A stretch of DNA of 64,000 nt, taken from assembly GCA_041665325.1 (NCBI GenBank), contig JBAYJB010000001.1, positions 162,817 to 226,816 of the forward strand, given 5' to 3'. How positions within the stretch are numbered: position 1 is the stretch's first letter; each line of letters opens with the position of its first letter. Below the pieces are notes generated by a model, which saw only the letters and a program-made list of their open reading frames with translations, was not told the DNA's origin and did no database searches. A program made the position numbers and the translations under genes. This stretch comes from Minisyncoccota bacterium. Lineage in GTDB: Bacteria > Patescibacteriota > Minisyncoccia > Phycocordibacterales > PALSA-1337. Below are positions 20,471-46,247 of this stretch, piece after piece.

Positions 20471-20851
20471 TTATGTCTTCTCTTCCTTACGACGACCGGA
20501 TCCCATAGTCTTCCTGACATTACCGCGGACTGTGCGAGAATTGGTCTTGGTGCGTTGGCCGCGCGCCGGCAGGTGGCGAGCATGCCTCGAACCGCGGTAA
20601 GCCTTGATATCCTTGAGGCGCTTGACGTTCGCGGCTACCTCGCGCTTGAGGTCGCCCTCGATCTTGAAGCTCTCGATGAGCTTCCTGACAGCATTCTCCT
20701 GCTCAACAGTGAGATCCTTGGGTTTGACCATGCCGTCGACTTTCGTCTCCAAAAGGACCTTCTGCGCGCGGGAGCGGCCGACGCCATAAATGGCAGTGAG
20801 GGCAATATACATCCTCTTGTTCTCCGGCAATGTTATTCCTAAAATACGCAT
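20471..20851 (-). CDS. rpsM: 30S ribosomal protein S13
   Basis: MRILGITLPENKRMYIALTAIYGVGRSRAQ matches S13. Confidence 0.9.
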   Translation of the reverse strand: MRILGITLPENKRMYIALTAIYGVGRSRAQKVLLETKVDGMVKPKDLTVEQENAVRKLIESFKIEGDLKREVAANVKRLKDIKAYRGSRHARHLPARGQRTKTNSRTVRGNVRKTMGSGRRKEEKT

Positions 20852-20855
20852 ATGA

Positions 20856-20972
20856 TTATCCTTGGCGCTGCTTATGACGCGGGTTAGCCTTGCAAACTAC
20901 GAAAACATATCCCCGCCTGCGGACGACGGTGCACTTGGGACATATGCGCTTGACGGAGGCTTTGACCTTCAT
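20856..20972 (-). CDS. rpmJ: 50S ribosomal protein L36 (38 aa; absent from the ORF track)
   Basis: Minus-strand translation gives [38 protein letters not shown] (CxxC...C...H zinc ribbon). It sits between infA and rpsM, as in the canonical operon. Confidence 0.8.
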
Positions 20973-20973
20973 A

Positions 20974-21198
20974 TTATAAACGTTTGGTGATACGCGCCCG
21001 TCCCCCGTATGGATCTTGTGTGAGTTCCACGCGGTCTCCGACTAATACACGGATCCGATTCATCCTCATCTTGCCTGCCAGATAGGCCAATAAGACCGTA
21101 TCGGTGCCGTCCAGAGCTACCCTGAACAACGTATCAGGCAAAGCCTCGGTGACAGTGCCAACGGCAAGGCTATTTTTTGGTTGAGGAGCTGTATCCAT
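20974..21198 (-). CDS. infA: Translation initiation factor IF-1
   Basis: 74 aa. [61 protein letters not shown] is highly typical of the IF-1 S1-like fold. Confidence 0.9.
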
Positions 21199-33339: not shown

Positions 33340-34377
33340 TTAGGCGACCACCGTGTACTTTCCCTGATTGTCGCGCTTGAAATATTTAGGATTCTGGAGG
33401 TTGACGGCGATGGTATTCTCCTTGACATAGCGCTCTTTCATGACCTTCGAGAGCACGTCTTCCTTGGTCATAGCGCCACCCTTCACGAGAATATTCTTGA
33501 TGACGTCACGCACGACGCCGGGTGAATAGCCCCATTCGGCTAGTGCATAGAGGCCGCGGCCAACCAGGACGAAGCGCTTGTCCTTGATGAGCTCGTTGTG
33601 GGTGGTGGCAACATGGGCCTTCTTATCGAAAAGCTTCTCGATCTGCTTGGCCACATCGCGGAAGTGGATCGGCGAACCATGCTTCCTGATGACTAGGAAG
33701 GCATAGTCGCGCACACCCTTGGTGTGGATATTGGAAGAGTGGGTGGCACCCCAGTCGCCAAGAGCATTCTTGCCAATCTTCTTGGAGATAAGGAGCCAAC
33801 GGCGCATGATCTCTTGGTTCTTGTATTTCTCGGAAACTTCCTCGAGGTGCTGGAGGAGGCGGTTGACCATCTCCGACTCCGGCAGAAGGTCGTCAGCGGA
33901 GAGATTGGCGTAGAGCTTATGCAAAGCATCCTCCACCTTTTTGGCTAGCTCCTCGTTGGCGTGCCAACGGTGGCGGAAGTTGTTGTCTTCCTTACGCTTC
34001 GTGAATGGTTCGCCGATCGTGAGGAGGAAATGGATATGGTTCTGGTAGCTCTTGTCCTTGGAGATATGGCCGAGGAAATCTTCCTCGACGACCATGCCGC
34101 CCAATGTGTGGAGTAGATCCTCGATCTCGACGAAAGCCGCCTTCTCGGCCTTGTATTCGTCGGACTTGCGGATGATGCCAAGGGCGTAGTTCTCGATCTG
34201 ACGGACGCGTTCCCTGGTGATGCCGTATTTCCTGCCGATACTATCGAGAGTCATGTGCTTCTCGTCCTTGCCGAGGCCATAACGGAATATGATGATCTCG
34301 CAGGCCCGGTCAGGCAGGCATGAGAGCAGGCGCTTGATGACCTGCTTGGGCTTGAATGAAATGGTAGGGGTAGGCAT
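33340..34377 (-). CDS. Sigma-70 region 4 (HTH) domain protein with a large C-terminal extension
   Basis: ACEIIIFRYGLGKDEKHMTLDSIGRKYGITRERVRQIENYALGII is a classical sigma70 region 4.2 HTH. The remaining roughly 270 aa are unassigned. Confidence 0.55.
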   Translation of the reverse strand: MPTPTISFKPKQVIKRLLSCLPDRACEIIIFRYGLGKDEKHMTLDSIGRKYGITRERVRQIENYALGIIRKSDEYKAEKAAFVEIEDLLHTLGGMVVEEDFLGHISKDKSYQNHIHFLLTIGEPFTKRKEDNNFRHRWHANEELAKKVEDALHKLYANLSADDLLPESEMVNRLLQHLEEVSEKYKNQEIMRRWLLISKKIGKNALGDWGATHSSNIHTKGVRDYAFLVIRKHGSPIHFRDVAKQIEKLFDKKAHVATTHNELIKDKRFVLVGRGLYALAEWGYSPGVVRDVIKNILVKGGAMTKEDVLSKVMKERYVKENTIAVNLQNPKYFKRDNQGKYTVVA

Positions 34378-34432: not shown

Positions 34433-37400
34433 CTATGTGGCCACAATATTCACCAATTTGTCCGGGACCACGATCGTGCGCCGTATTTCCTTTGCTTCTA
34501 GCCATTTTTTGGCTTCTGGTAGATCTCTGGCCATCTTTTCAAGATCCTCCTTCCCTGTTCCTGTTGGTGCCATGAATGAGCCGCGGACCTTGCCGTTGAC
34601 CTGGAGCATGATCTTGACTTCGCTCTCGATCAGCATGTCAGGATCACACTTAGGCCATTCGGAAGTGTGAATAGATTTTTTATTTCCCATGCTCGACCAC
34701 AACTCCTCGGCGACGTGCGGCGCGAACGGGGCGAGGAGCTTGAGATATGATTCGAGGGCTGTTCTCGATACCGATTCGCTCTTCTCCAGCTCATTCAGAC
34801 AGATCATAAGCGTGCTGATCGCCGTGTTGAACTTCAATCCTTGGATATCATCGGTCACTTTCTTGATAGTCCTGTGAATTATAGTTGGAACGGCTGTATC
34901 CCCGGTAGTCCTATCGGCGAACTTCCAAACGCGCTCGATGAAGCGGCGCGATCCGACCATGCTGGCGGTGCTCCAGGCGATCTGCTGGTCGAACGGGCCC
35001 ATGAACATCTCGTAGAGGCGCAGGGTGTCGGCTCCGTAAGTCGCGATGATGTCGTCCGGGTTGATGACATTGCCGAAGCGCTTGGACATCTTCCTGCCAT
35101 CCTCGCCCATGATCAGACCGACGCTCTGGAGCTTGGTGAACGGCTCTATATAGGAGACGGCCCCGATGTCGTAGAGGAACTTATGCCAGAAGCGGGCATA
35201 GATGAGGTGGCGCGTGGCGTGCTCTGCCCCGCCAACATAGAGATCGACCGGCGACCAATGCTTCTCTTTCGCCGGGTCGACAAGCTGCTTCTTGTTATTC
35301 GGATCTTCGTAGCGCAGATAGTACCAGCTCGAACCGGCCCACTGCGGCATGGTGTTGGTTTCGCGCTTCCCTTTGCCGCCGCATTGAGGACACTTGACGT
35401 TGACCCACTTGTCGATAGCGGCAAGCGGTGATTCCCCTGTCCCGGTAGGCTCATAAGACTTCACTTTGGGCAGTTTGACCGGCAGATCCTTCTCGGGCAC
35501 GGCTACTACGCCGCACTTGTCGCAATGAATGACCGGTATCGGCTCGCCCCAATAGCGTTGGCGGGAGAAGACCCAGTCGCGAAGCTTGTAGCGAGTGACC
35601 CAGCGACCACTAACGAACGTGGTTATATCCCTCATGACTGATGAGGACTCCTTATTATCGAACATATCGGAATTCATCAATCGCCCATCACCAACATAAG
35701 CGCTGGCCTTAAATCTAATCTTGTCGCTTGTCTTGTCGTATCCTAATTCGATCGCCAAACCAATGGCCTGCTGGATGAATCTAAGCCAGTGATGATTGCC
35801 ATCTCCATTCCACGATCTTATGCCATCGTCGAGCTCGTCTGCAGATAGCCAGACTAGGTCAAACTTCTCGTGAGCCTCATGCTTCACATCTTTAGAGTCG
35901 GATTTTTTAAGGATCACGAGCAGACATGTGGCATCAGCTACTCGGTTGAGATGCTTCAGTGAATGGTAATAATGGGCTCGAGCTTTTTCTACTACTTCCA
36001 CTTTCTCAAAATCGTACAAACCGCTTTCCTCTGTTATCTCCCTCAAAATCCCCTCTTGAAGATCTTCACCCTTGTTCAACCCACCGGCAAAAAGCCCGAC
36101 CTTCCCATCCTCGCGCTTGTAAGCAGCATATTTCTGCTTCACCGGATCAAATACGACCCCACATCCTCCACCTCTTTCTTCTTCGTTCTCACGCTTGGTT
36201 CCAAACTCAGGAACAATCACTTGCCTTATTTGCAATCCGTACTTCTTAGCAAAAGCTAAGTCGCGCTCGTCATGTGCCGGCACTGCCATGACCGCACCGG
36301 TGCCGTAGTCGGCAAGGACATAGTCGGCGATCCAGACCGGCACCTCTTCTTTGTTTGCCGGATTGACGGCCCAGACACCTTTGAGTTCGACACCGGTCTT
36401 CTCCTTGGACAGATCGGTGCGCTCGATCTGAGTAGCGATCAGGGCTTGCGCCATGTACTGCTCGACTTCCTGCTTATTCTCGAGCCGCGGTAATAGTTCC
36501 TTGACCCAAGGATGTTCCGGAGCCAAGACCATGTAAGTCACCCCGAACAACGTGTCCGGGCGGGTGGTGAAAACTTTGACATTTGGAGTCACGCTCTCGA
36601 GCACAGCCGGTTCTTGCAGAGCACAGAAATGTTCTTTGGCCGCAGAGGTCTCGGTGAGAGCGCCGGAAAGCTCCTTGGTAAGCTGTTTGAGCCATGGTAT
36701 GCGCTTTTCCTCCTTGATGTCCGAAAGCACGGCGACACGCCCTTGGGCGAGCTTATTGATCAATTTGTAATCGAAATCCCAATCAAAATTTTTGTGGTAG
36801 ACGCGCGGCTTAGAGTTCTTATTGAAACCTGGTGGCATAGCCGCAGCTACTAGCACCAACCCGGATATCGGACGGTTGAGCTTCATGAGCGCCTTCATAG
36901 CAACGATCGCTCCGAGACTGTGTCCGATTACGACGGTATATTCGTCTAACTTACAATTCTTGAGCACATATTCGACTTGTTCGGACTCCTTTGGATCAGT
37001 CGAGTTTGGCAATTCAGGAGTCTCAACTTCATGGCCGCGCTGTTGTAGTTCGGCCTTGAGCCAGGGGATGAAATTATTCTTGGCACTGCCGGTATAGCCA
37101 TGGAGGATGACGAACCGCGACTTGTGGTTTTTGAGGACTAGGCGGAAATCGATCTCTGCTCCCTCGCTCCTGCCGATCCAATTACGCTGGGCTTCCTTGA
37201 TCGATTCAGGCCAGTTGAGAAGAGGTTTTATTTCTTGTTTTTTGGCTCCGGTAAAGAGATCCCACAGATAAGTCATATCCTCGTAATTCGTAAAATCCCT
37301 GACTTCGTCGCGAGAAAGCCAGACATGTTCATGGAGAGATTTCTCCTCCTCATTTGTCTCTTCCCGCTCGTCGTTCAGAAGCTCGACATAAACGCCGGTA

Positions 37401-38353
37401 AAATGTGCGAATCGATTATGCTTCTTCACTTTCTGAAAAAACTTTGAGTCGACTCTACCGAATTCTCTGATGAATCTTACGTTCTTATAGCCGGTCTCCT
37501 CTCGAATCTCCCTCGCGGCCGTATCGGCCAACGATTCTCCTTCTTCCCTACCACCGATCACGAAACCTTGCCAGTGCGTTGCCTTCCAACGAGCGCAAAG
37601 ATATTTATCTTCATGCCAATGTTTGATGATCACCACTGCCGCATCGCGTTCAGAGATCGGATCATCGGGCCGAAAAGCATCTTCACCAATGGCCCTAGTC
37701 ACGAGCGGTATGCCGCCACTCGCATCCAGATCCGTGAGCAACCGATCCGCATAGTCCGTGATCTTCAGGACCCACTGGCGCATCGGCTTCTTCTCGACCG
37801 GCGTGCCGCAACGCTCACAACGTCCGTCCTCGACGTCTTCGTTGGCCAGACCGGTCTTGCATGAAGGACACCAATTGATCGGCTCATACGATTCGTAGGC
37901 CAGGCCTTTCTTGAATAACTGCAAGAATATCCATTGCGTCCACTTGTAGAACTTGGGATCAGTCGTATTGACCTCGCGCGACCAGTCGTAGTCCAGACCG
38001 ATCAACTCGAGCTGCTGTTTGAATCTTTTGACGTTCTTGGCTACCGACACCATCGGATTGGTCTTCATCTTGATGGCGTAGTTCTCCGCCGGCAGGCCGA
38101 AGGCATCGAAACCCATGGGGTGGAGGATGTCGAGGCCTTGCATGCGCTTCATGCGCGAGACGATGTCAGTGGCGATATAGCCCTTGGGATGGCCAACGTG
38201 TAGGCCATCACCGGAAGGATACGGGAACATATCGAGGACATAATATTTGCCCTGACCGGTCTTCTCGCTGGCGCGGTAGAGCTTGGAAGAGGTCCACTTC
38301 TTCTGCCATTTCTTCTCGATCTTGGCGGGGTCGTAGACGGGGCGCTTTTTCAT
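34433..38353 (-). CDS. leuS: Leucyl-tRNA synthetase carrying three inserted hydrolase modules (Nudix, alpha/beta-hydrolase, Nudix)
   Basis: LeuRS core: [16 protein letters not shown] (HIGH), [35 protein letters not shown] (CP1 start), [36 protein letters not shown] (KMSKS). Inserted modules: [23 protein letters not shown] and [23 protein letters not shown] (Nudix boxes), and [13 protein letters not shown] (serine hydrolase nucleophile elbow). Total 1306 aa, against about 820-860 aa for canonical bacterial LeuRS. Confidence 0.9.
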   Translation of the reverse strand: [1306 protein letters not shown]

Positions 38354-41985: not shown

Positions 41986-42062
41986 TGGTGCACCCTGCAG
42001 GGCTCGAACCTGCGACCTCGCCCGTGTGAAGGGCGCGCTCTAGCCAACTGAGCTAAGGGTGC
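41986..42062 (-). tRNA. tRNA-Val (anticodon CAC), CCA encoded
   Basis: GCACCCT-TA-GCTC-AGTTGGCTA-GAGC-G-CGCCC-TTCACAC-GGGCG-AGGTC-GCAGG-TTCGAGC-CCTGC-AGGGTGC-A-CCA. Cloverleaf with all stems Watson-Crick paired. Confidence 0.8.
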
Positions 42063-42093
42063 ATGAATCTAAAAAAATTTGGGAATTTTCAAA

Positions 42094-42167
42094 TGGTCGG
42101 GCTGCCGGGAATCGAACCCGGACCGCATCCACCCCATGGATGTATACTACCACTATACTACAGCCCG
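42094..42167 (-). tRNA. tRNA-Pro (anticodon GGG), CCA encoded
   Basis: CGGGCTG-TA-GTAT-AGTGGTA-GTAT-A-CATCC-ATGGGGT-GGATG-CGGTC-CGGGT-TCGATTC-CCGGC-AGCCCGA-CCA. Confidence 0.75.
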
Positions 42168-42337
42168 ATCGGCGCGCCGGAGACAAAGCGGCCTGCGTAG
42201 CTTACTTTATTTTTGAGATTTCCTCAAATTGTGCTACATTATCACGGTTCGAGTAGGGCCTATACTCGCTTCGCTCGTTGAGGCCCGTCGCTCGGACGCT
42301 GTGAATGATGAGAACATCATTCACACGATCCTCGCTA

Positions 42338-42408
42338 GGGCCTATAGTAAAATGGTATTACGCGTCCATGGCATGGACGAAGCCCGGGTTCGATTCCCGG
42401 TAGGTCCA
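42338..42408 (+). tRNA. tRNA-Ala (anticodon GGC), no encoded CCA
   Basis: GGGCCTA-TA-GTAA-AATGGTA-TTAC-G-CGTCC-ATGGCAT-GGACG-AAGC-CCGGG-TTCGATT-CCCGG-TAGGTCC-A. The G3:U70 Ala identity pair is present. Confidence 0.75.
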
Positions 42409-42445
42409 CTCAAAGAAACATTATTTTCTATATTCCGAATAAATT

Positions 42446-43870
42446 TTAATTGCTTTTTAAGATAAATCGAATCGAGAATTCGTCGCTCTTTCTAAGTAAT
42501 TTTTCCCCTTGTAATTGTAATTCGGTTACATAATTTGATGAAGAAACCAAACCATCTTTGAAAACCTTAAATCCTAAAACATGGCACTTTGCCTCAGACA
42601 TTGATCGTTTTATTTTATTCTCTAGAGAAAAAGAAGCCATACCAAACGCATCAGTAGATAGACTTTTTATAAGTGAAGGCTGTTGGTGCAAACCCTGATA
42701 ACGCGGGTCTTCAGCCTGAATACAGAAAACATCGATCTTTGACGAAATAATCGCTCTTGAAAGCGAGTCGTTGACTTTTACAGTAATTTTGGAAGGATAG
42801 AGTTGGTTCATATCAGAAATTCCCCTACTCCTAAATCGCATGTCAGAATGATAAAGGTTCTCGTTGATAATATAAATTGAAAGAGGACCAAAAGCCGCTT
42901 TTCGGAAACCATCTTGATAAGTAAGCATTATATCCCTTAGATATTCTTCCGACAAAGAAACGACAGGAATTTTGGGAGAGATGTTGGAATTGTCAATGGC
43001 ATTTGGATAAACATAGTATTCGGGAATGGCAACTCCGTAAGTATGTGCAACCTCATGTGAAAGAGTTTGTACTAGTAATGAATAAAAACCAGAATTAGGG
43101 CTTAGATCATTGCTCGAGTCAGCTAAATGAAGTGACTCATTTCCTAGAAATATTGTTGGTGGGGCACCTTGGACTGTATAGGCACTTGTGATTGCTCCAG
43201 GAATGCCATATACGACCAATGCACCAGGGGTGTAATATTGTGAGTCGGCAATTATATTTGCACATCCATTTACACAAGTATCTGGATTATATGTTTTTAG
43301 ACCAGCAAAAGAAAAAATTTTCTTCGTACCTGAATAAACAAAATTGATCCCATCAACAAAAGAAGAAAGGACTTGTGATAAATCCTTTCGAGTCTCTAGA
43401 TATTTATCAGGCATTACAAAAAGAATTTTCTCGGATTTTGTTTCTACAAAATCTGCAGTAATCCGTGTTCCTGAAACTTTATCTATACCATCTAAATCAA
43501 AAGAGCTCCCGTAAATAGGGATCACTCTATACTCGTATGTGACACCACGCTCCACATCATAATCAATAGCAAAATCACCTCCCGCATTAGAAACGGTTGG
43601 TATATTTTTAAAGGAAGAAAGACTATTACCTTCAACATTTGCTCGAGCGAGCGCATAACTTGAAGGCTTTGGAGTTACAGGATTCCACTCAATATATATC
43701 GCACTACCTAGACCGTTATTCTTAGCAGTAATAGTCAACTGTGCGGGCTGGCAAGATGTACCCCTACATTCATTCCCGTTTTTGTTAAAACTAAATGGCA
43801 GAAGACCTGAAAAAAGAAGAACAAAAAACAATAGGCCAGCCCCGATAACGTAAATATATTCTTTTTTCAT
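42446..43870 (-). CDS. Secreted putative zinc metallopeptidase (HExxH) with an N-terminal FN3-like region; encoded on a strongly AT-rich segment
   Basis: Signal/TM YIYVIGAGLLFFVLLFSGLL. HEVAH motif in LVQTLSHEVAHTYGV. The sequence composition is markedly AT-rich compared with the flanks by eye. It sits immediately 3' of tRNA-Ala. Confidence 0.5.
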   Translation of the reverse strand: MKKEYIYVIGAGLLFFVLLFSGLLPFSFNKNGNECRGTSCQPAQLTITAKNNGLGSAIYIEWNPVTPKPSSYALARANVEGNSLSSFKNIPTVSNAGGDFAIDYDVERGVTYEYRVIPIYGSSFDLDGIDKVSGTRITADFVETKSEKILFVMPDKYLETRKDLSQVLSSFVDGINFVYSGTKKIFSFAGLKTYNPDTCVNGCANIIADSQYYTPGALVVYGIPGAITSAYTVQGAPPTIFLGNESLHLADSSNDLSPNSGFYSLLVQTLSHEVAHTYGVAIPEYYVYPNAIDNSNISPKIPVVSLSEEYLRDIMLTYQDGFRKAAFGPLSIYIINENLYHSDMRFRSRGISDMNQLYPSKITVKVNDSLSRAIISSKIDVFCIQAEDPRYQGLHQQPSLIKSLSTDAFGMASFSLENKIKRSMSEAKCHVLGFKVFKDGLVSSSNYVTELQLQGEKLLRKSDEFSIRFILKSN

Positions 43871-43927
43871 ATAATGGCACTATTATACAACTCTTTAAAG
43901 CAAATGATATAATGACACCATAAAACA

Positions 43928-44515
43928 ATGATGACTGATTTCATCTTGGGAGCGACGGCCGCGGTCATAGCTTACGAGCTGTATTTATATCAGGGGGCTT
44001 CATCATCCATATCGATTTGGGGCGCGACTTTTGTCTTGATCTCATTGTCAGCGTTGTTGGGGGGTATCTATCACGGCGCACGGCATATCGCCGGAGAAAG
44101 ATTCAACCGCTACACATGGAAGGCAGTCCTCTACGCCTTAGCCGGAGCGAGCTTCCTGTTCCTGTGCGCCGCATCATTCACTGTTCCGGTTGCTACTGTG
44201 AAAATTGCTCTCATCATCTTCGCGGCCATCAAATTGCTCATCTCCATCGGAGCGATCTATTCTTCCGACAGATTCCGTATGGTGATGTATGACTATCTGA
44301 TCTCTATGGTGATAACGGCTGTGCTCTATAGCCTATTTATGCCGCCACATGCGACGCTCTGGTTCGCCACTGGGATGATCATGTCTCTCATCGCATCGGC
44401 GATCCAACTCCGGAAGATCGCCCCCAAGCGCTATCTCGATCACAATGACATATATCACCTTCTCCAAGCCCTGGCGCTCATCATGATGTACAAGGGCATC
44501 ATAGCCGCGCTCTGA
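43928..44515 (+). CDS. Hypothetical polytopic membrane protein (about 6 TM)
   Basis: 195 aa, hydrophobic throughout, with no recognised motif. Confidence 0.5.
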   Translation: MMTDFILGATAAVIAYELYLYQGASSSISIWGATFVLISLSALLGGIYHGARHIAGERFNRYTWKAVLYALAGASFLFLCAASFTVPVATVKIALIIFAAIKLLISIGAIYSSDRFRMVMYDYLISMVITAVLYSLFMPPHATLWFATGMIMSLIASAIQLRKIAPKRYLDHNDIYHLLQALALIMMYKGIIAAL

Positions 44516-44577
44516 AAACAAAAGGCCGCCTTCCCTCTTTTGAGAGTCGGCGGCGGAATGATAACTTCGGGTGTGAT

Positions 44578-45603
44578 CTAAGCCTTGATGAGCTTGGCTT
44601 CGATCTGCGCCGGAGTGGGCACTCTGACGTCCCACACTGAACCGAACATCTGGTGCAACTTGATGACCAGATAGCTGGCATCGCTCCAACGGTGCAGGAT
44701 GGCATGGACAGCCGACCACGCAAAGGCATGATGGCCGTTGTGAGCCCCCTCACCAAGAGTGATGAGCATGACGAACCAGTTATCCCTCGACTCATCCGGG
44801 CTCTTGAAGGTCTTCTTGCCCCAGATGTGGCAGATGCTATTGACCGACCACGTGTTGTGCTGGACAAAGAACAGGCTGATGAGCCCTCCCCACAGGAAAC
44901 CGCGCCAGACGCCCAACAGAGACGATTCGTGAATGAAACCGAGCAGTGCCGGCAGGATCCCGCTTAGGACCATCCACAATACGGTGTGCCGATCGACGAA
45001 GCAGATCACCTCGTCTTTGCGGAGCCGTTCGGTACAGCCATTCTCTATAACCTGGTTCCTTGAGAACAGCCAGACGAAATGGGCGTGCCAGAATCCCTTG
45101 AAGAGAGCCAGGGGGCTCGTACCGAACATCCAGGGAGAGTGCGGGTCACCTTCAGCATCGCTGCACTGATGATGCTTGCTGTGCTTCGAGCACCAAGCAA
45201 GCGGAGTGCCCTGATACGCAGCTGAGCCGCAGGCGCCCCAGAAGATCTTGAAGGCCTTGCTGGCCTTGAACGATTCGTGGGTGAAAAGCCTATGGAAAGC
45301 GATAGTGATGCCGAGCTCTCTGAATATGCAGGAAAGGAAGAGGAGCGATAAGTAGAACAGATCGACCCCCTCTCCCCAGATCTGCCATATCCCATAGATC
45401 ACAGCCAGGAATGGAAAAATAACAAGGGCGAGGACGAATCCCCGCCCGAATCGATCGAGTGGATGATCGATATGTTCTGCTTGTGGCAGAACTAGTTGCG
45501 GAGTATTCATGCGATGAAGGAGGAACTCGAAGGTATTTCGAGGAGCTCTGTGATCATCATAACATTGAAAATTGGATTTGCCCCGTTTGTGGCGGATCGG
45601 CAC
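44578..45603 (-). CDS. Acyl-CoA/acyl-lipid delta-9-type fatty acid desaturase (possible alternative start MNTPQ at 45510)
   Basis: Three His boxes in canonical order and spacing: HRLFTH, HSKHH, HNGHHAF. 4 TM segments. Stearoyl-CoA desaturase-like layout. Confidence 0.8.
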   Translation of the reverse strand: MPIRHKRGKSNFQCYDDHRAPRNTFEFLLHRMNTPQLVLPQAEHIDHPLDRFGRGFVLALVIFPFLAVIYGIWQIWGEGVDLFYLSLLFLSCIFRELGITIAFHRLFTHESFKASKAFKIFWGACGSAAYQGTPLAWCSKHSKHHQCSDAEGDPHSPWMFGTSPLALFKGFWHAHFVWLFSRNQVIENGCTERLRKDEVICFVDRHTVLWMVLSGILPALLGFIHESSLLGVWRGFLWGGLISLFFVQHNTWSVNSICHIWGKKTFKSPDESRDNWFVMLITLGEGAHNGHHAFAWSAVHAILHRWSDASYLVIKLHQMFGSVWDVRVPTPAQIEAKLIKA

Positions 45604-45628
45604 CGAAATATGCTATCGTAACGGACAT

Positions 45629-45699
45629 CGGGGCGTAGTATAGTGGTAGTATACACGCTTCGGGTGCGTGAGGTCCGAGTTCGATTCTCGGCGCCCCGA
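45629..45699 (+). tRNA. tRNA-Pro (anticodon CGG), no encoded CCA
   Basis: CGGGGCG-TA-GTAT-AGTGGTA-GTAT-A-CACGC-TTCGGGT-GCGTG-AGGT-CCGAG-TTCGATT-CTCGG-CGCCCCG-A. Confidence 0.75.
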
Positions 45700-45730
45700 C
45701 AAGTATGGTTTAGTCATTCGCTCCTCGCTA

Positions 45731-45801
45731 GGGCCCGTAGTAAAGTGGTATTACGCGGCATTCGCATTGCCGAAGCGGGAGTCCGATTCTCCCCGGGTCC
45801 A
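45731..45801 (+). tRNA. tRNA-Ala (anticodon CGC), no encoded CCA
   Basis: GGGCCCG-TA-GTAA-AGTGGTA-TTAC-G-CGGCA-TTCGCAT-TGCCG-AAGC-GGGAG-TCCGATT-CTCCC-CGGGTCC-A. G3:U70 present. Confidence 0.75.
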
Positions 45802-45811
45802 CAAAGTAAAA

Positions 45812-45845
45812 GGCCGGACTTTGTGGGTCCGGCCTCGAGGGGATT
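45812..45845 (-). terminator. Rho-independent terminator for the small gene 45845..46096
   Basis: Minus-strand GGCCGGAC-ccacaaa-GTCCGGCC followed by TTTTACTTTG. Confidence 0.4.
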
Positions 45846-46096
45846 CAGGCTACATGCAGCTCTTTCTCAAGCTGACTCTTGAAGGCTTTAGCTTGGTCCA
45901 TGGCCTTGGCCGATTCCGAGAATTCGACCAGGAGACATTCAAGGACCATCAATTTCTCCCTGTCTTCGATCATATGAAGATCTTGCAGGGACTTTGCCAA
46001 ATTTTCCTCAAGAGTGCCTAGAACTTGCTCTAGGAACTTCATCCTAGATTCCAGATGAGAAAGCCTCTGGATTAAAAGCTTCTTTCTAAGGTTCAT
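45845..46096 (-). CDS. Small hypothetical coiled-coil protein (83 aa) between tRNA genes
   Basis: Predicted helical, lower GC than its surroundings, and an own terminator. Confidence 0.4.
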   Translation of the reverse strand: MNLRKKLLIQRLSHLESRMKFLEQVLGTLEENLAKSLQDLHMIEDREKLMVLECLLVEFSESAKAMDQAKAFKSQLEKELHVA

Positions 46097-46173
46097 ATGA
46101 AGATATTATACTACCTTATAACCTATTTGTCAAGGAGCTGAAAACCTCATTTTGCTGTATCCTTTGTGACACT

Positions 46174-46246
46174 GGGCCTGTAGCTCACCTGGTAGAGCGC
46201 CTCATTTGCAATGAGGAGGTAAGCGGTTCGAGTCCGCTCAGGTCCA
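46174..46246 (+). tRNA. tRNA-Ala (anticodon UGC), no encoded CCA
   Basis: GGGCCTG-TA-GCTC-ACCTGGTA-GAGC-G-CCTCA-TTTGCAA-TGAGG-AGGTA-AGCGG-TTCGAGT-CCGCT-CAGGTCC-A. G3:U70 present. Confidence 0.8.
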
Positions 46247-46247
46247 C

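Follow-up and report, generated by a model that had tools for sequence, protein, structure and literature searches.

The only structurally characterised members of the membrane desaturase group discussed here are the mammalian stearoyl-CoA desaturase 1 (SCD1) enzymes (PDB 4ymk, 6wf2 and 4zyo), in which four transmembrane helices form two hairpins, accompanied by a cytosolic helical cap. Bacterial counterparts comprise proteins of around 300 amino acids, named acyl-CoA or delta-9 desaturases, from Actinomycetota and Planctomycetota, as well as cyanobacterial DesC, a ferredoxin-dependent delta-9 desaturase that acts on acyl lipids. The Actinomycetota, Planctomycetota and cyanobacteria carrying this family synthesise their own fatty acids, while CPR bacteria are reported to do otherwise. 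Indeed, CPR bacteria are described as being without membrane-lipid synthesis, yet they contain ordinary fatty-acid lipids (PMC7242380, PMC10939385). For Patescibacteria, the mechanisms of lipid uptake and breakdown are described as unidentified (PMC11665869), and our literature search returned no paper on desaturases in CPR, Patescibacteria or Parcubacteria.

The window (the whole analysed stretch of 64,000 nucleotides, from a contig of at least 305 kb) carries housekeeping genes along with many ORFs that have no Pfam match. It also encodes a desaturase, of which the gene and its conserved elements are located as follows.

44578..45510, minus strand: desaturase CDS, 310 aa, SCD1/DesC-type membrane di-iron acyl desaturase, most likely the true gene
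45511..45603, minus strand: 31-codon upstream extension from a GTG codon; homologues start at the ATG
45277..45294, minus strand: histidine box 1, HRLFTH (H73, H78), aligned with HRLWSH of mouse SCD1
45169..45183, minus strand: histidine box 2, HSKHH (H110, H113, H114), aligned with HRAHH of SCD1
44827..44841, minus strand: element NSICH (N224, H228), part of transmembrane helix 4, aligned with NSAAH of SCD1
44728..44742, minus strand: histidine box 3, HNGHH (H257, H260, H261), aligned with HNYHH of SCD1

The 341-aa ORF reported in the preliminary description is present at 44578..45603 on the minus strand if translation begins at GTG, but this start codon did not hold up. Homologues of 287–364 aa align from the ATG at 45510 onward, an identical database protein (P0001) begins at the same codon, as does the gene called in another strain, and 310 aa is also the gene-caller result in three assemblies. 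The CDS therefore most likely spans 44578..45510, with a true start that, judging from these alignments, is probably the ATG rather than GTG 45603. The segment 45511..45603 is probably a non-coding 5′ region or promoter. It is 100% identical between both strains, as are the 130 nt upstream of the desaturase, so that the strain comparison cannot separate the two starts.

The three histidine boxes had been recognised in canonical order, and this order stands, in agreement with the superfamily pattern HX3-4H, HX2-3HH, HX2-3HH (HRLFTH at residue 73, HSKHH at 110 and HNGHH at 257 in the 310-aa numbering). A fourth conserved element, NSICH at residue 224, was overlooked at that stage. Across 92 homologues, no substitution occurs at H78, H110, H113, H114, N224, S225, H228, H257, H260 or H261, and at least 90% of these sequences retain H73. 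The nine histidines and one asparagine thus present equal what we take to be the di-iron ligand set of SCD1, and the distances between H73 and H110 (37 residues) and between H228 and H257 (29 residues) agree with the spacings in the same enzyme. The second residue of box 2 deviates: it is Ser here (HSKHH), while of the 137 retrieved sequences 105 carry Arg. Further proteins from this clade likewise do without the Arg (HHMHH, HTVHH, HALHH, HDVHH). Also conserved are the Gln of an AxQG motif upstream of box 2 (Q100) and the Thr-Trp pair before NSxxH (T220, W221). These residues presumably line the kink at C9–C10 in SCD1 structures, which we treat as a lead only.

Profile, sequence and fold comparisons converge on the stearoyl-CoA-desaturase/DesC type, in support of the family assignment made from the motifs. 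The Pfam profile PF00487 (FA_desaturase), which had been proposed for an HMM scan, scores 51.7 bits against a cut-off of 29.7 (E 1.4e-13; residues 85–295 of the 341-aa ORF). With phmmer, the best matches in the PDB are SCD1 entries 4ymk (E 1.6e-20) and 4zyo (E 4.5e-19), with all four ligand motifs aligned. A failure of the histidine boxes to align with di-iron ligands had been named as the observation that would speak against a desaturase; instead, they align residue for residue with SCD1. The AlphaFold (AF2) model (pLDDT 92.5, pTM 0.89) contains four long helices (20–44, 51–77, 176–195 and 198–229), which correspond to the four hydrophobic segments noted earlier and which we read as four transmembrane helices, arranged in the model as two hairpins with a cytosolic helical cap, as in SCD1. 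Foldseek retrieves SCD1 entries alone at E ≤ 1e-10 (E of about 1e-10 to 1e-11; TM 0.70–0.75 over some 290 residues) and no further PDB fold below E 0.06. A hydroxylase or ketolase scaffold was rejected, as no such fold occurs among the PDB sequence or fold matches. Nonetheless, the protein differs from SCD1 in its identity of only 23–24%, its shorter N-terminus, the sequence of box 2 and the lack of a cytochrome b5 or b5 reductase partner within the window. The phospholipid delta-9 desaturases of the Pseudomonas DesA family share the superfamily and match partially; with 49.2 bits against a 400-bit cut-off for NCBIfam NF049918, the protein is no member of that family.

We conclude that this is a real membrane desaturase, and the family to which it belongs is that of the bacterial acyl-CoA/delta-9 desaturases of around 300 aa. 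It shares with its Actinomycetota and Planctomycetota representatives 35–46% full-length identity, an equal length, the motifs and the C-terminal GEGxHNxHH...S(A)xHG region. Unlike them, it groups with CPR sequences and metagenomic sequences lacking a label in a distinct clade (P0001, 2, 3, 4, 6, 7, 8, 15, 21 and 122; bootstrap 100/100). A second clade (P0009, 10, 12 and 127) is equally well resolved (100/100), and both are joined together with P0070 at 71/100. All labelled clade members are CPR bacteria (Nomurabacteria, Parcubacteria, Paceibacterota), including CP129473.1, a single record of 691,769 bp, so by its phylogenetic position the desaturase belongs to a lineage found in CPR genomes. 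P0001, the database protein of identical sequence (310 aa), is annotated as a fatty acid desaturase and stems from a Candidatus Paceibacterota MAG, with which the reduced genome assumed in the preliminary description is consistent. Similarly, close relatives of the Ddl protein from this locus are labelled Taylorbacteria, Parcubacteria or Patescibacteria. The window is accordingly assigned to a Paceibacterota (CPR) bacterium, an ultra-small organism that depends on a host.

A genome-contig search with the single desaturase protein yielded 26 pattern matches, none of which was confirmed. Searches of genome contigs with a 13-sequence alignment and of metagenome contigs with a 5-sequence alignment each returned at least 600 rows. 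Among the matches listed in either search, relatives share at most 42% identity; those on genome contigs are mostly from Planctomycetota, Actinomycetota and Acidobacteriota, whereas no taxon is given for the metagenome loci. The distribution of the desaturase in CPR bacteria appears patchy and its locus varies between lineages; synteny is kept in at least two other genome pairs (L003/L005 and L007/L008).

Based on these similarities, we consider it probable that the protein is a functional four-helix di-iron acyl-chain desaturase of the SCD1/DesC 'first' delta-9 type that edits scavenged lipids. By analogy with the family, two electrons from a soluble carrier would reduce the di-iron centre held by the nine His and one Asn. 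O2, on which the enzyme would depend as a property of its family, would then be activated and two hydrogens would be taken from a saturated C16/C18 acyl chain in a kinked tunnel, with a cis-monoene and water as products. Since CPR bacteria are reported to be without membrane-lipid synthesis, the substrate is most likely formed by acyl chains scavenged from other cells. Desaturation could take place directly on glycerolipids, the acyl-lipid mode of cyanobacterial DesC; alternatively, the chains could first be activated to a thioester. Given oxygen, the cell could in this way adjust the fluidity of a membrane obtained second-hand.

The gene content of the window is in line with the earlier remark that no fatty-acid synthesis genes are visible, as a Pfam scan of approximately 55 ORFs from it revealed no fab or acc genes. 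Pls and FadD genes are likewise missing from the window. Enzymes of the SCD1/DesC type receive electrons from cytochrome b5 and its reductase, or from ferredoxin or flavodoxin with a reductase, yet neither a ferredoxin, flavodoxin, cytochrome b5 or reductase nor an acyl-CoA synthetase was detected in these 64 kb. One of the related genomes (L011) carries a cytochrome b5 ORF that has no counterpart in the window or at the other loci. At two other loci (L007 and L008), the desaturase gene is followed by small secreted c-type cytochromes; these were rejected as electron donors, because they would reside outside the cell, on the face of the membrane opposite to where the SCD1 analogy places the di-iron site.

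A classical acyl-CoA desaturase would draw on an endogenous or partly endogenous pool, either of FadD-activated fatty acids or from a fatty acid synthase encoded elsewhere in the genome, instead of editing intact lipids in place. This is the strongest competing explanation, albeit distinctly less probable than the editing of scavenged lipids. NCBI names close relatives 'acyl-CoA desaturase', but these names are homology transfers, and although the closest template by structure works on acyl-CoA, the bacterial family of around 300 aa also includes acyl-lipid enzymes such as cyanobacterial DesC. Our inspection covered 64 kb of the contig of at least 305 kb, which leaves room for synthesis genes elsewhere; against this stand the missing acyl-CoA synthetase in the window and the general lack of lipid synthesis in CPR genomes (PMC7242380, PMC11665869).

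It is rather unlikely that the same fold serves another chemistry or target, such as desaturation at another position, hydroxylation, or action on a non-fatty-acyl lipid (an alkyl or ether chain, a sphingoid base or another isoprenoid-free lipid). The low identity to SCD1 would allow for this, as would the nearest relatives, which are uncharacterised metagenomic proteins of at most 50% identity, and the long branches that set the clade apart from the Actinomycetota and Planctomycetota sequences. Likewise, the ceramidase-like neighbour described below could point to amide-linked lipids. The sequence and fold searches, on the other hand, return SCD1 alone, JGI labels relatives as stearoyl-CoA delta-9 desaturase (by homology), and the conservation of Q100, T220 and W221 would fit a kink at C9–C10, with the reservation already made.

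The genomic setting of the gene is a tRNA cluster, of which the components and the intervening genes are the following.

41986..42167, minus strand: tRNA-Val(cac) and tRNA-Pro(ggg), rest of the conserved six-tRNA cluster (ARAGORN, Rfam)
42338..42409, plus strand: tRNA-Ala(ggc), one border of the insert (ARAGORN, Rfam)
42410..45628, no strand: 3.2-kb insert, bounded by tRNA-Ala(ggc) and tRNA-Pro(cgg); three related genomes lack it
42446..43870, minus strand: ORF of 474 aa and foreign composition, completing the three genes of the insert; hydrophobic segment at the N-terminus, HEVAH motif
43928..44515, plus strand: DUF6962 seven-helix membrane protein, 195 aa, part of the insert, candidate CREST-like lipid hydrolase
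44516..44577, no strand: spacer of 62 nt separating the genes for the desaturase and DUF6962, which are convergent; read from the sequence
45629..45700, plus strand: tRNA-Pro(cgg), other border of the insert, divergent from the desaturase (ARAGORN; Rfam 62.2 bits)
45731..45802, plus strand: tRNA-Ala(cgc) (ARAGORN, Rfam)
46174..46247, plus strand: tRNA-Ala(tgc) (ARAGORN, Rfam)

The tRNA-Pro and tRNA-Ala genes that had been said to follow the desaturase are real, but they are located upstream of this minus-strand gene: a gap of 118 nt separates tRNA-Pro(cgg) and tRNA-Ala(cgc) from its start, and their transcription runs in the divergent direction. The six-tRNA cluster between ddl and G6PD is conserved in three related genomes (L009, L010 and L011), of which the first two match the tRNA set including Val(cac) and Pro(ggg). 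All three conserve the UvrC-Ddl...G6PD flanks, with UvrC, Ddl, G6PD and YchF matching at 65–87% identity (tblastn), while tblastn detects no desaturase, DUF6962 or 474-aa ORF in them. The distance between tRNA-Pro(cgg) and tRNA-Ala(ggc) is 363, 33 and 2 nt in these relatives versus 3.2 kb here, where the three missing genes fill the interval. As the relatives keep the tRNA cluster without the insert, the accessory status suspected from the window is supported, and more strongly than could be read from the window itself. The desaturase gene may have arrived in this insert, or at least now sits in it; loss from the three relatives may have occurred instead of gain here. No recombinase or integrase is encoded in the 41.9–47 kb region and no att-like direct repeats surround the insert, the only repeats found being tRNA paralogues.

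In composition, the genes of the insert diverge. The 474-aa ORF has a GC content of 0.371 and a GC3 of 0.272, compared to window gene means of 0.54 and 0.67. It is present in both strains and has no Pfam, NCBIfam, PDB or PHROG match; two further ORFs around the insert (207 and 83 aa) have no PHROG, PDB or Pfam match. In the PHROG scan, the desaturase matches one family of unknown function and the other four ORFs tested match none. With a GC3 of 0.71 against the mean of 0.67, a recent foreign origin of the desaturase was rejected. The DUF6962 gene (0.66) is native in composition as well, so that recent foreign acquisition clearly fits the 474-aa ORF alone. Within the 62-nt spacer between the two convergent genes, a T-run comes after a GC-rich hairpin (GCCGCC...GGCGGC). 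A consensus terminator scan did not list this element, but it may terminate both genes.

A second strain (L092; 96.3% nucleotide identity, same gene order) differs from the window desaturase by 17 synonymous and four non-synonymous changes. The resulting dN/dS of 0.064 is comparable to that of YchF in the same strain pair (0.061), and none of the four non-synonymous changes touches a ligand residue. The desaturase is kept under strong purifying selection. This bears on the notion of a passenger in a variable tRNA hot-spot that has no important role for the cell, or of an enzyme that mainly consumes O2 and thereby shields an oxygen-sensitive fermenter. The gene lies in an insert that is missing in three relatives and has a clearly alien gene for a neighbour, no partner genes are found nearby, and the distribution in CPR bacteria is seemingly patchy with a locus that differs by lineage. 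Yet a dN/dS as low as that of a housekeeping GTPase, the intact set of ligands, the native codon composition and the synteny kept in L003/L005 and L007/L008 make such a passenger role improbable. Finally, although this desaturase family is common in Actinomycetota and Planctomycetota, a chimeric assembly or mis-binned gene from, e.g., an actinobacterium or planctomycete is hardly conceivable, as the gene lies within a 305-kb contig among CPR-type housekeeping genes, its GC and GC3 match the host, its closest relatives are themselves from CPR bacteria, and mis-assembly is effectively refuted by the same junctions in an independent ENA assembly (LeuRS to TatD) and a Logan contig, making three assemblies in all.

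The convergent neighbour in the insert may add a second lipid-related activity. CREST proteins (ACER3, AdipoR/PAQR, Myomaker/TMEM8 and SID-1) hold a metal with a His in helix 2, an Asp and an HxxxH motif in helix 7. The DUF6962 model has a seven-helix fold that is closest to ACER3, Myomaker, AdipoR and SID-1, with alkaline ceramidase and AdipoR as best matches, and the protein conserves D4, H49 in helix 2, and H172, D174 and H177 at the start of helix 7. On this basis, it is a candidate CREST-like (ceramidase/PAQR-like) metal-dependent lipid hydrolase. It differs from the described members in its length of only 195 aa and in the spacing of the helix-7 motif (H-x4-H; HNDxYH), and the Foldseek E-values are not significant, with GPCR-like folds scoring nearly as high. 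Neither phmmer nor a 69-sequence profile matches it to a PDB sequence, no second Pfam family appears at E ≤ 1, and a word-index homology search returns its own cluster only. DUF6962 adjoins none of the approximately 170 other desaturase loci examined; the pairing is therefore observed in a single lineage.

The DUF6962 protein may supply or recycle acyl chains for the desaturase. An intact desaturase next to a ceramidase-like protein suggests that this bacterium edits lipids taken from other cells. A more far-reaching and doubtful proposal is that both genes constitute a small mobile 'lipid-editing' cassette of Patescibacteria, in which the hydrolase would free or exchange acyl chains, or make the lysolipids reportedly enriched in CPR cells, and the CPR-specific, O2-dependent desaturase would adjust their saturation. 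If this were true, a bacterium without fatty-acid synthesis would customise a membrane built from the lipids of others, the pair would be among the first concrete molecular handles on the processing of acquired lipids in CPR bacteria, and obligate O2 use would be implied for lineages that are usually described as fermentative.

Within its well-known family the enzyme is unremarkable, and GenBank already carries the corresponding annotation; what makes it of interest is thus the biological setting, not any new biochemistry. It is a known kind of enzyme, of which a new member is found in an uncommon biological context. If SCD-type desaturases form a well-supported clade in CPR bacteria, at least some of these episymbionts would actively modify the lipids they acquire, for which they would need O2 and a reductant. 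Purifying selection, synteny in several lineages and insertion in a tRNA cluster beside a ceramidase-like protein are the points behind this view. The desaturase and the DUF6962 protein thus provide two clonable candidates for lipid processing in CPR bacteria.

The minus-strand open reading frame at 44578..45603 (GTG start, 341 aa) matches the Pfam profile PF00487 FA_desaturase at 51.7 bits (E = 1.4e-13; cut-off 29.7), which bears out the family assignment of the preliminary description, and all three histidine boxes reported there (HRLFTH, HSKHH and HNGHH) are found. A fourth element, NSICH, sits between boxes 2 and 3. The proposed GTG start at 45603 is not favoured: the internal ATG at 45510 is the start in all homologues (287-364 aa), in P0001, a database protein of 310 aa with identical sequence, and in the gene as called in a second strain, so the coding sequence is most likely 44578..45510. 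P0001 is annotated as 'MAG: fatty acid desaturase [Candidatus Paceibacterota bacterium]' and is carried on a 305-kb contig. The two tRNA genes thought to follow the desaturase lie upstream of it. The features are listed below (window gene mean: GC 0.542, GC3 0.667).

42410-45628, insert of 3,219 nt between tRNA-Pro(cgg) and tRNA-Ala(ggc), with the desaturase, DUF6962 and 474-aa ORF
42446-43870, minus strand, 474-aa ORF (GC 0.371, GC3 0.272)
43928-44515, plus strand, DUF6962 (GC 0.514, GC3 0.658)
44578-45510, minus strand, desaturase (GC 0.553, GC3 0.707)
45629-45700, tRNA-Pro(cgg), divergent from the desaturase, 118 nt upstream of its start
45731-45802, tRNA-Ala(cgc), upstream of the desaturase, transcribed divergently

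The two strains have 100% identity over the 130 nt 5' of the desaturase ATG (45511-45640, reaching into the beginning of tRNA-Pro), against differences of 0.4-4.6% in the genes around it; this stretch may represent a conserved divergent promoter region.

When all PDB sequences are searched with phmmer, the only significant matches are mouse and human stearoyl-CoA desaturase 1 (SCD1; 4ymk, E = 1.6e-20; 4zyo, E = 4.5e-19). The alignment pairs HRLFTH with HRLWSH, HSKHH with HRAHH, NSICH with NSAAH and HNGHH with HNYHH, four motifs that we take to hold the nine histidines and the water-bridging asparagine of the di-iron site. The ligand spacings (H73-H110, 37 residues; H228-H257, 29 residues) equal those of SCD1. 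Across 92 aligned homologues, no variation occurs at H78, H110, H113, H114, N224, H228, H257, H260 or H261, and H73 is conserved in at least 90%. His120, His125 and His269 are among the di-iron-site residues named in the literature (PMC9825965). The AlphaFold2 model built from the 92-homologue alignment (pLDDT 92.5, pTM 0.89) has helices at 20-44, 51-77, 176-195 and 198-229, which we read as four transmembrane helices. Foldseek against the PDB retrieves only SCD1 entries at E ~1e-10 to 1e-11 (TM 0.70-0.75, ~290 columns), the first match after these having an E-value of 0.06. The protein has the ligand set and fold of SCD1; it belongs to the SCD1/DesC-type membrane desaturases and is already annotated accordingly. 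A hydroxylase or ketolase relative, the alternative raised earlier, is rejected because the histidine boxes align with SCD1 and the significant PDB matches are SCD1 only; the Pseudomonas DesA equivalog is rejected as well (49 bits versus 400 required).

Mis-assembly of the locus is excluded, since an independent ENA assembly of the second strain (L092; 14.8 kb, 96.3% nucleotide identity, LeuRS to TatD) repeats the gene order and a Logan contig spans the three central genes. The leucyl-tRNA synthetase (34433-38353, minus strand, 1306 aa) carries three insertions around its editing domain: a NUDIX domain at aa ~250-353, an alpha/beta-hydrolase domain at aa 414-528 and another NUDIX domain at aa ~745-845; the second NUDIX (35595-36242) is missing from L092 through a clean in-frame 191-codon indel. 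Beside it, 33340-34377 (minus strand) encodes a 345-aa protein with Sigma70 region 4 and HARE-HTH domains.

The locus was compared with three related genomes (L009, L010 and L011; identity of Ddl 70-75%, UvrC 68-75%, G6PD 65-75% and YchF 87%). All three keep the UvrC-Ddl...G6PD backbone. The tRNA cluster between ddl and G6PD (window 41986-46247; L009 3734-6159; L010 18263-19610; L011 11226-12324) comprises six tRNAs identical in set, order and orientation in the window, L009 and L010 (Ala-tgc, Ala-cgc, Pro-cgg, Ala-ggc, Pro-ggg, Val-cac), despite flanking-protein identity of only about 70-75%; that of L011 is rearranged, with five tRNAs. The desaturase, DUF6962 and 474-aa ORF are absent from all three relatives, where tRNA-Pro(cgg) and tRNA-Ala(ggc) lie 363, 33 and 2 nt apart versus 3,219 nt in the window, which supports the earlier view of an accessory gene in a variable region. 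Small ORFs between the tRNAs differ from genome to genome, which suggests a hot-spot where insertions recur. Large ORFs with Sigma70/DnaA_C domains occur near or inside the matching Ddl-G6PD region of L009 and L010. No integrase or att-like repeats were found flanking the insert.

By composition, only the 474-aa ORF is plainly foreign, the other two insert genes having a native look; foreignness of the desaturase itself is not borne out (GC3 0.707 versus a mean of 0.667). Most simply, the desaturase and DUF6962 would have been acquired first, the donor being similar in composition and possibly itself a CPR bacterium since the desaturase falls in a CPR clade, and the low-GC gene would have been added later. 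The less parsimonious alternative is loss from the three relatives rather than gain in the window. The 474-aa ORF begins with a hydrophobic segment in its N-terminal part, contains the motif HEVAH, has no match in Pfam, NCBIfam, PDB or PHROG, and is found in both strains (dN/dS 0.44).

The closest desaturase homologue (50% identity) belongs to Ca. Nomurabacteria. Metagenomic sequences follow at 44-49%; clustered with them at 90% are a protein from Ca. Parcubacteria and, encoded on CP129473.1 (a record of 691,769 bp), WKZ26686.1, named 'acyl-CoA desaturase [Ca. Paceibacterota]'; among the matches listed, Actinomycetota and Planctomycetota desaturases rank after these (~40-46%). In a bootstrapped neighbour-joining tree of 54 sequences, the window protein falls in a ten-sequence clade (bootstrap 100/100). 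A second CPR clade (P0009, 10, 12 and 127) is equally robust (100/100), and both join with P0070 at 71/100. All labelled members are CPR; as several others carry no label, we infer that the clades are CPR-specific. Gene context varies between lineages and is kept within each: MgsA-desaturase-SpoIIM-P-type ATPase in loci L003 and L005, and PEP carboxylase-aminotransferase-desaturase-small cytochrome c in L007 and L008, whose contigs are probably CPR. The ~90-aa proteins directly downstream of the latter desaturases, which are of the same clade (L007 11063-11344; L008 11043-11303), combine a signal peptide with the haem-c motif CxxCH and would be small secreted cytochromes c. Some 4 kb from the Nomurabacteria homologue lie genes for a diacylglycerol kinase of prokaryotic type and for a protein with a cupredoxin domain (L002 5565-6395), a hint at lipid handling and an oxic lifestyle. 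Between the two strains, the desaturase shows 17 synonymous and four non-synonymous differences, none of the latter at ligands, and its dN/dS (0.064) is close to the 0.061 of YchF, a housekeeping GTPase. The gene is intact and under purifying selection in a CPR genome.

DUF6962 and the desaturase converge, and the 62 nt between them contain a GC-rich hairpin and a T-run. Its family counts 759 representative clusters (E <= 1e-3), the nearest non-self member at 41% identity, with G45, H49 and H177 invariant and T3, D4, H172, N173, D174 and Q160 nearly so. The AlphaFold2 model (seven helices, pLDDT 96.7) gives top TM-scores to ACER3 (0.71) and AdipoR1 (0.70), at Foldseek E-values that are not significant, and PDB sequence and profile searches found no link to CREST-type proteins. 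On this model, a CREST-like metal-dependent lipid hydrolase is plausible, at roughly even chances. Because DUF6962 stands beside another desaturase at none of the ~170 loci examined, evidence for functional coupling comes from the window lineage only. A two-gene lipid-editing cassette seems unlikely.

By family inference, the reduced di-iron centre would activate O2 and dehydrogenate a saturated acyl chain by two hydrogens, with electrons from ferredoxin or flavodoxin, as in bacteria, or from cytochrome b5 (PMC9825965). Pfam scans of ~55 window ORFs, many of which gave no match, returned G6PD, chaperones, aminoacyl-tRNA synthetases and genes of the divisome and of peptidoglycan; they include no ferredoxin, flavodoxin or cytochrome b5 and, as first noticed, no fab/acc genes, nor any for phospholipid synthesis. 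L011, a Paceibacterota genome lacking the desaturase at this locus, does encode a cytochrome b5-domain protein anchored in the membrane (20684-20984), which has no counterpart in the window. NADPH could come from G6PD, ~3.5 kb away, which belongs to the conserved backbone and not to the insert. The nearest labelled relatives of the neighbouring Ddl are Taylorbacteria, Parcubacteria and Patescibacteria. Since CPR bacteria reportedly contain normal fatty-acid lipids without synthesising membrane lipids themselves (PMC7242380, PMC10939385), the substrate would probably be scavenged acyl chains, desaturated perhaps on glycerolipids in situ or following activation. According to a recent perspective, how Patescibacteria take up and break down lipids is still to be identified (PMC11665869), and no discussion of CPR desaturases was found in the literature searched. 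What is less ordinary is not the enzyme but where it occurs: CPR genomes, from organisms believed not to synthesise lipids, harbour a robust clade of desaturases.
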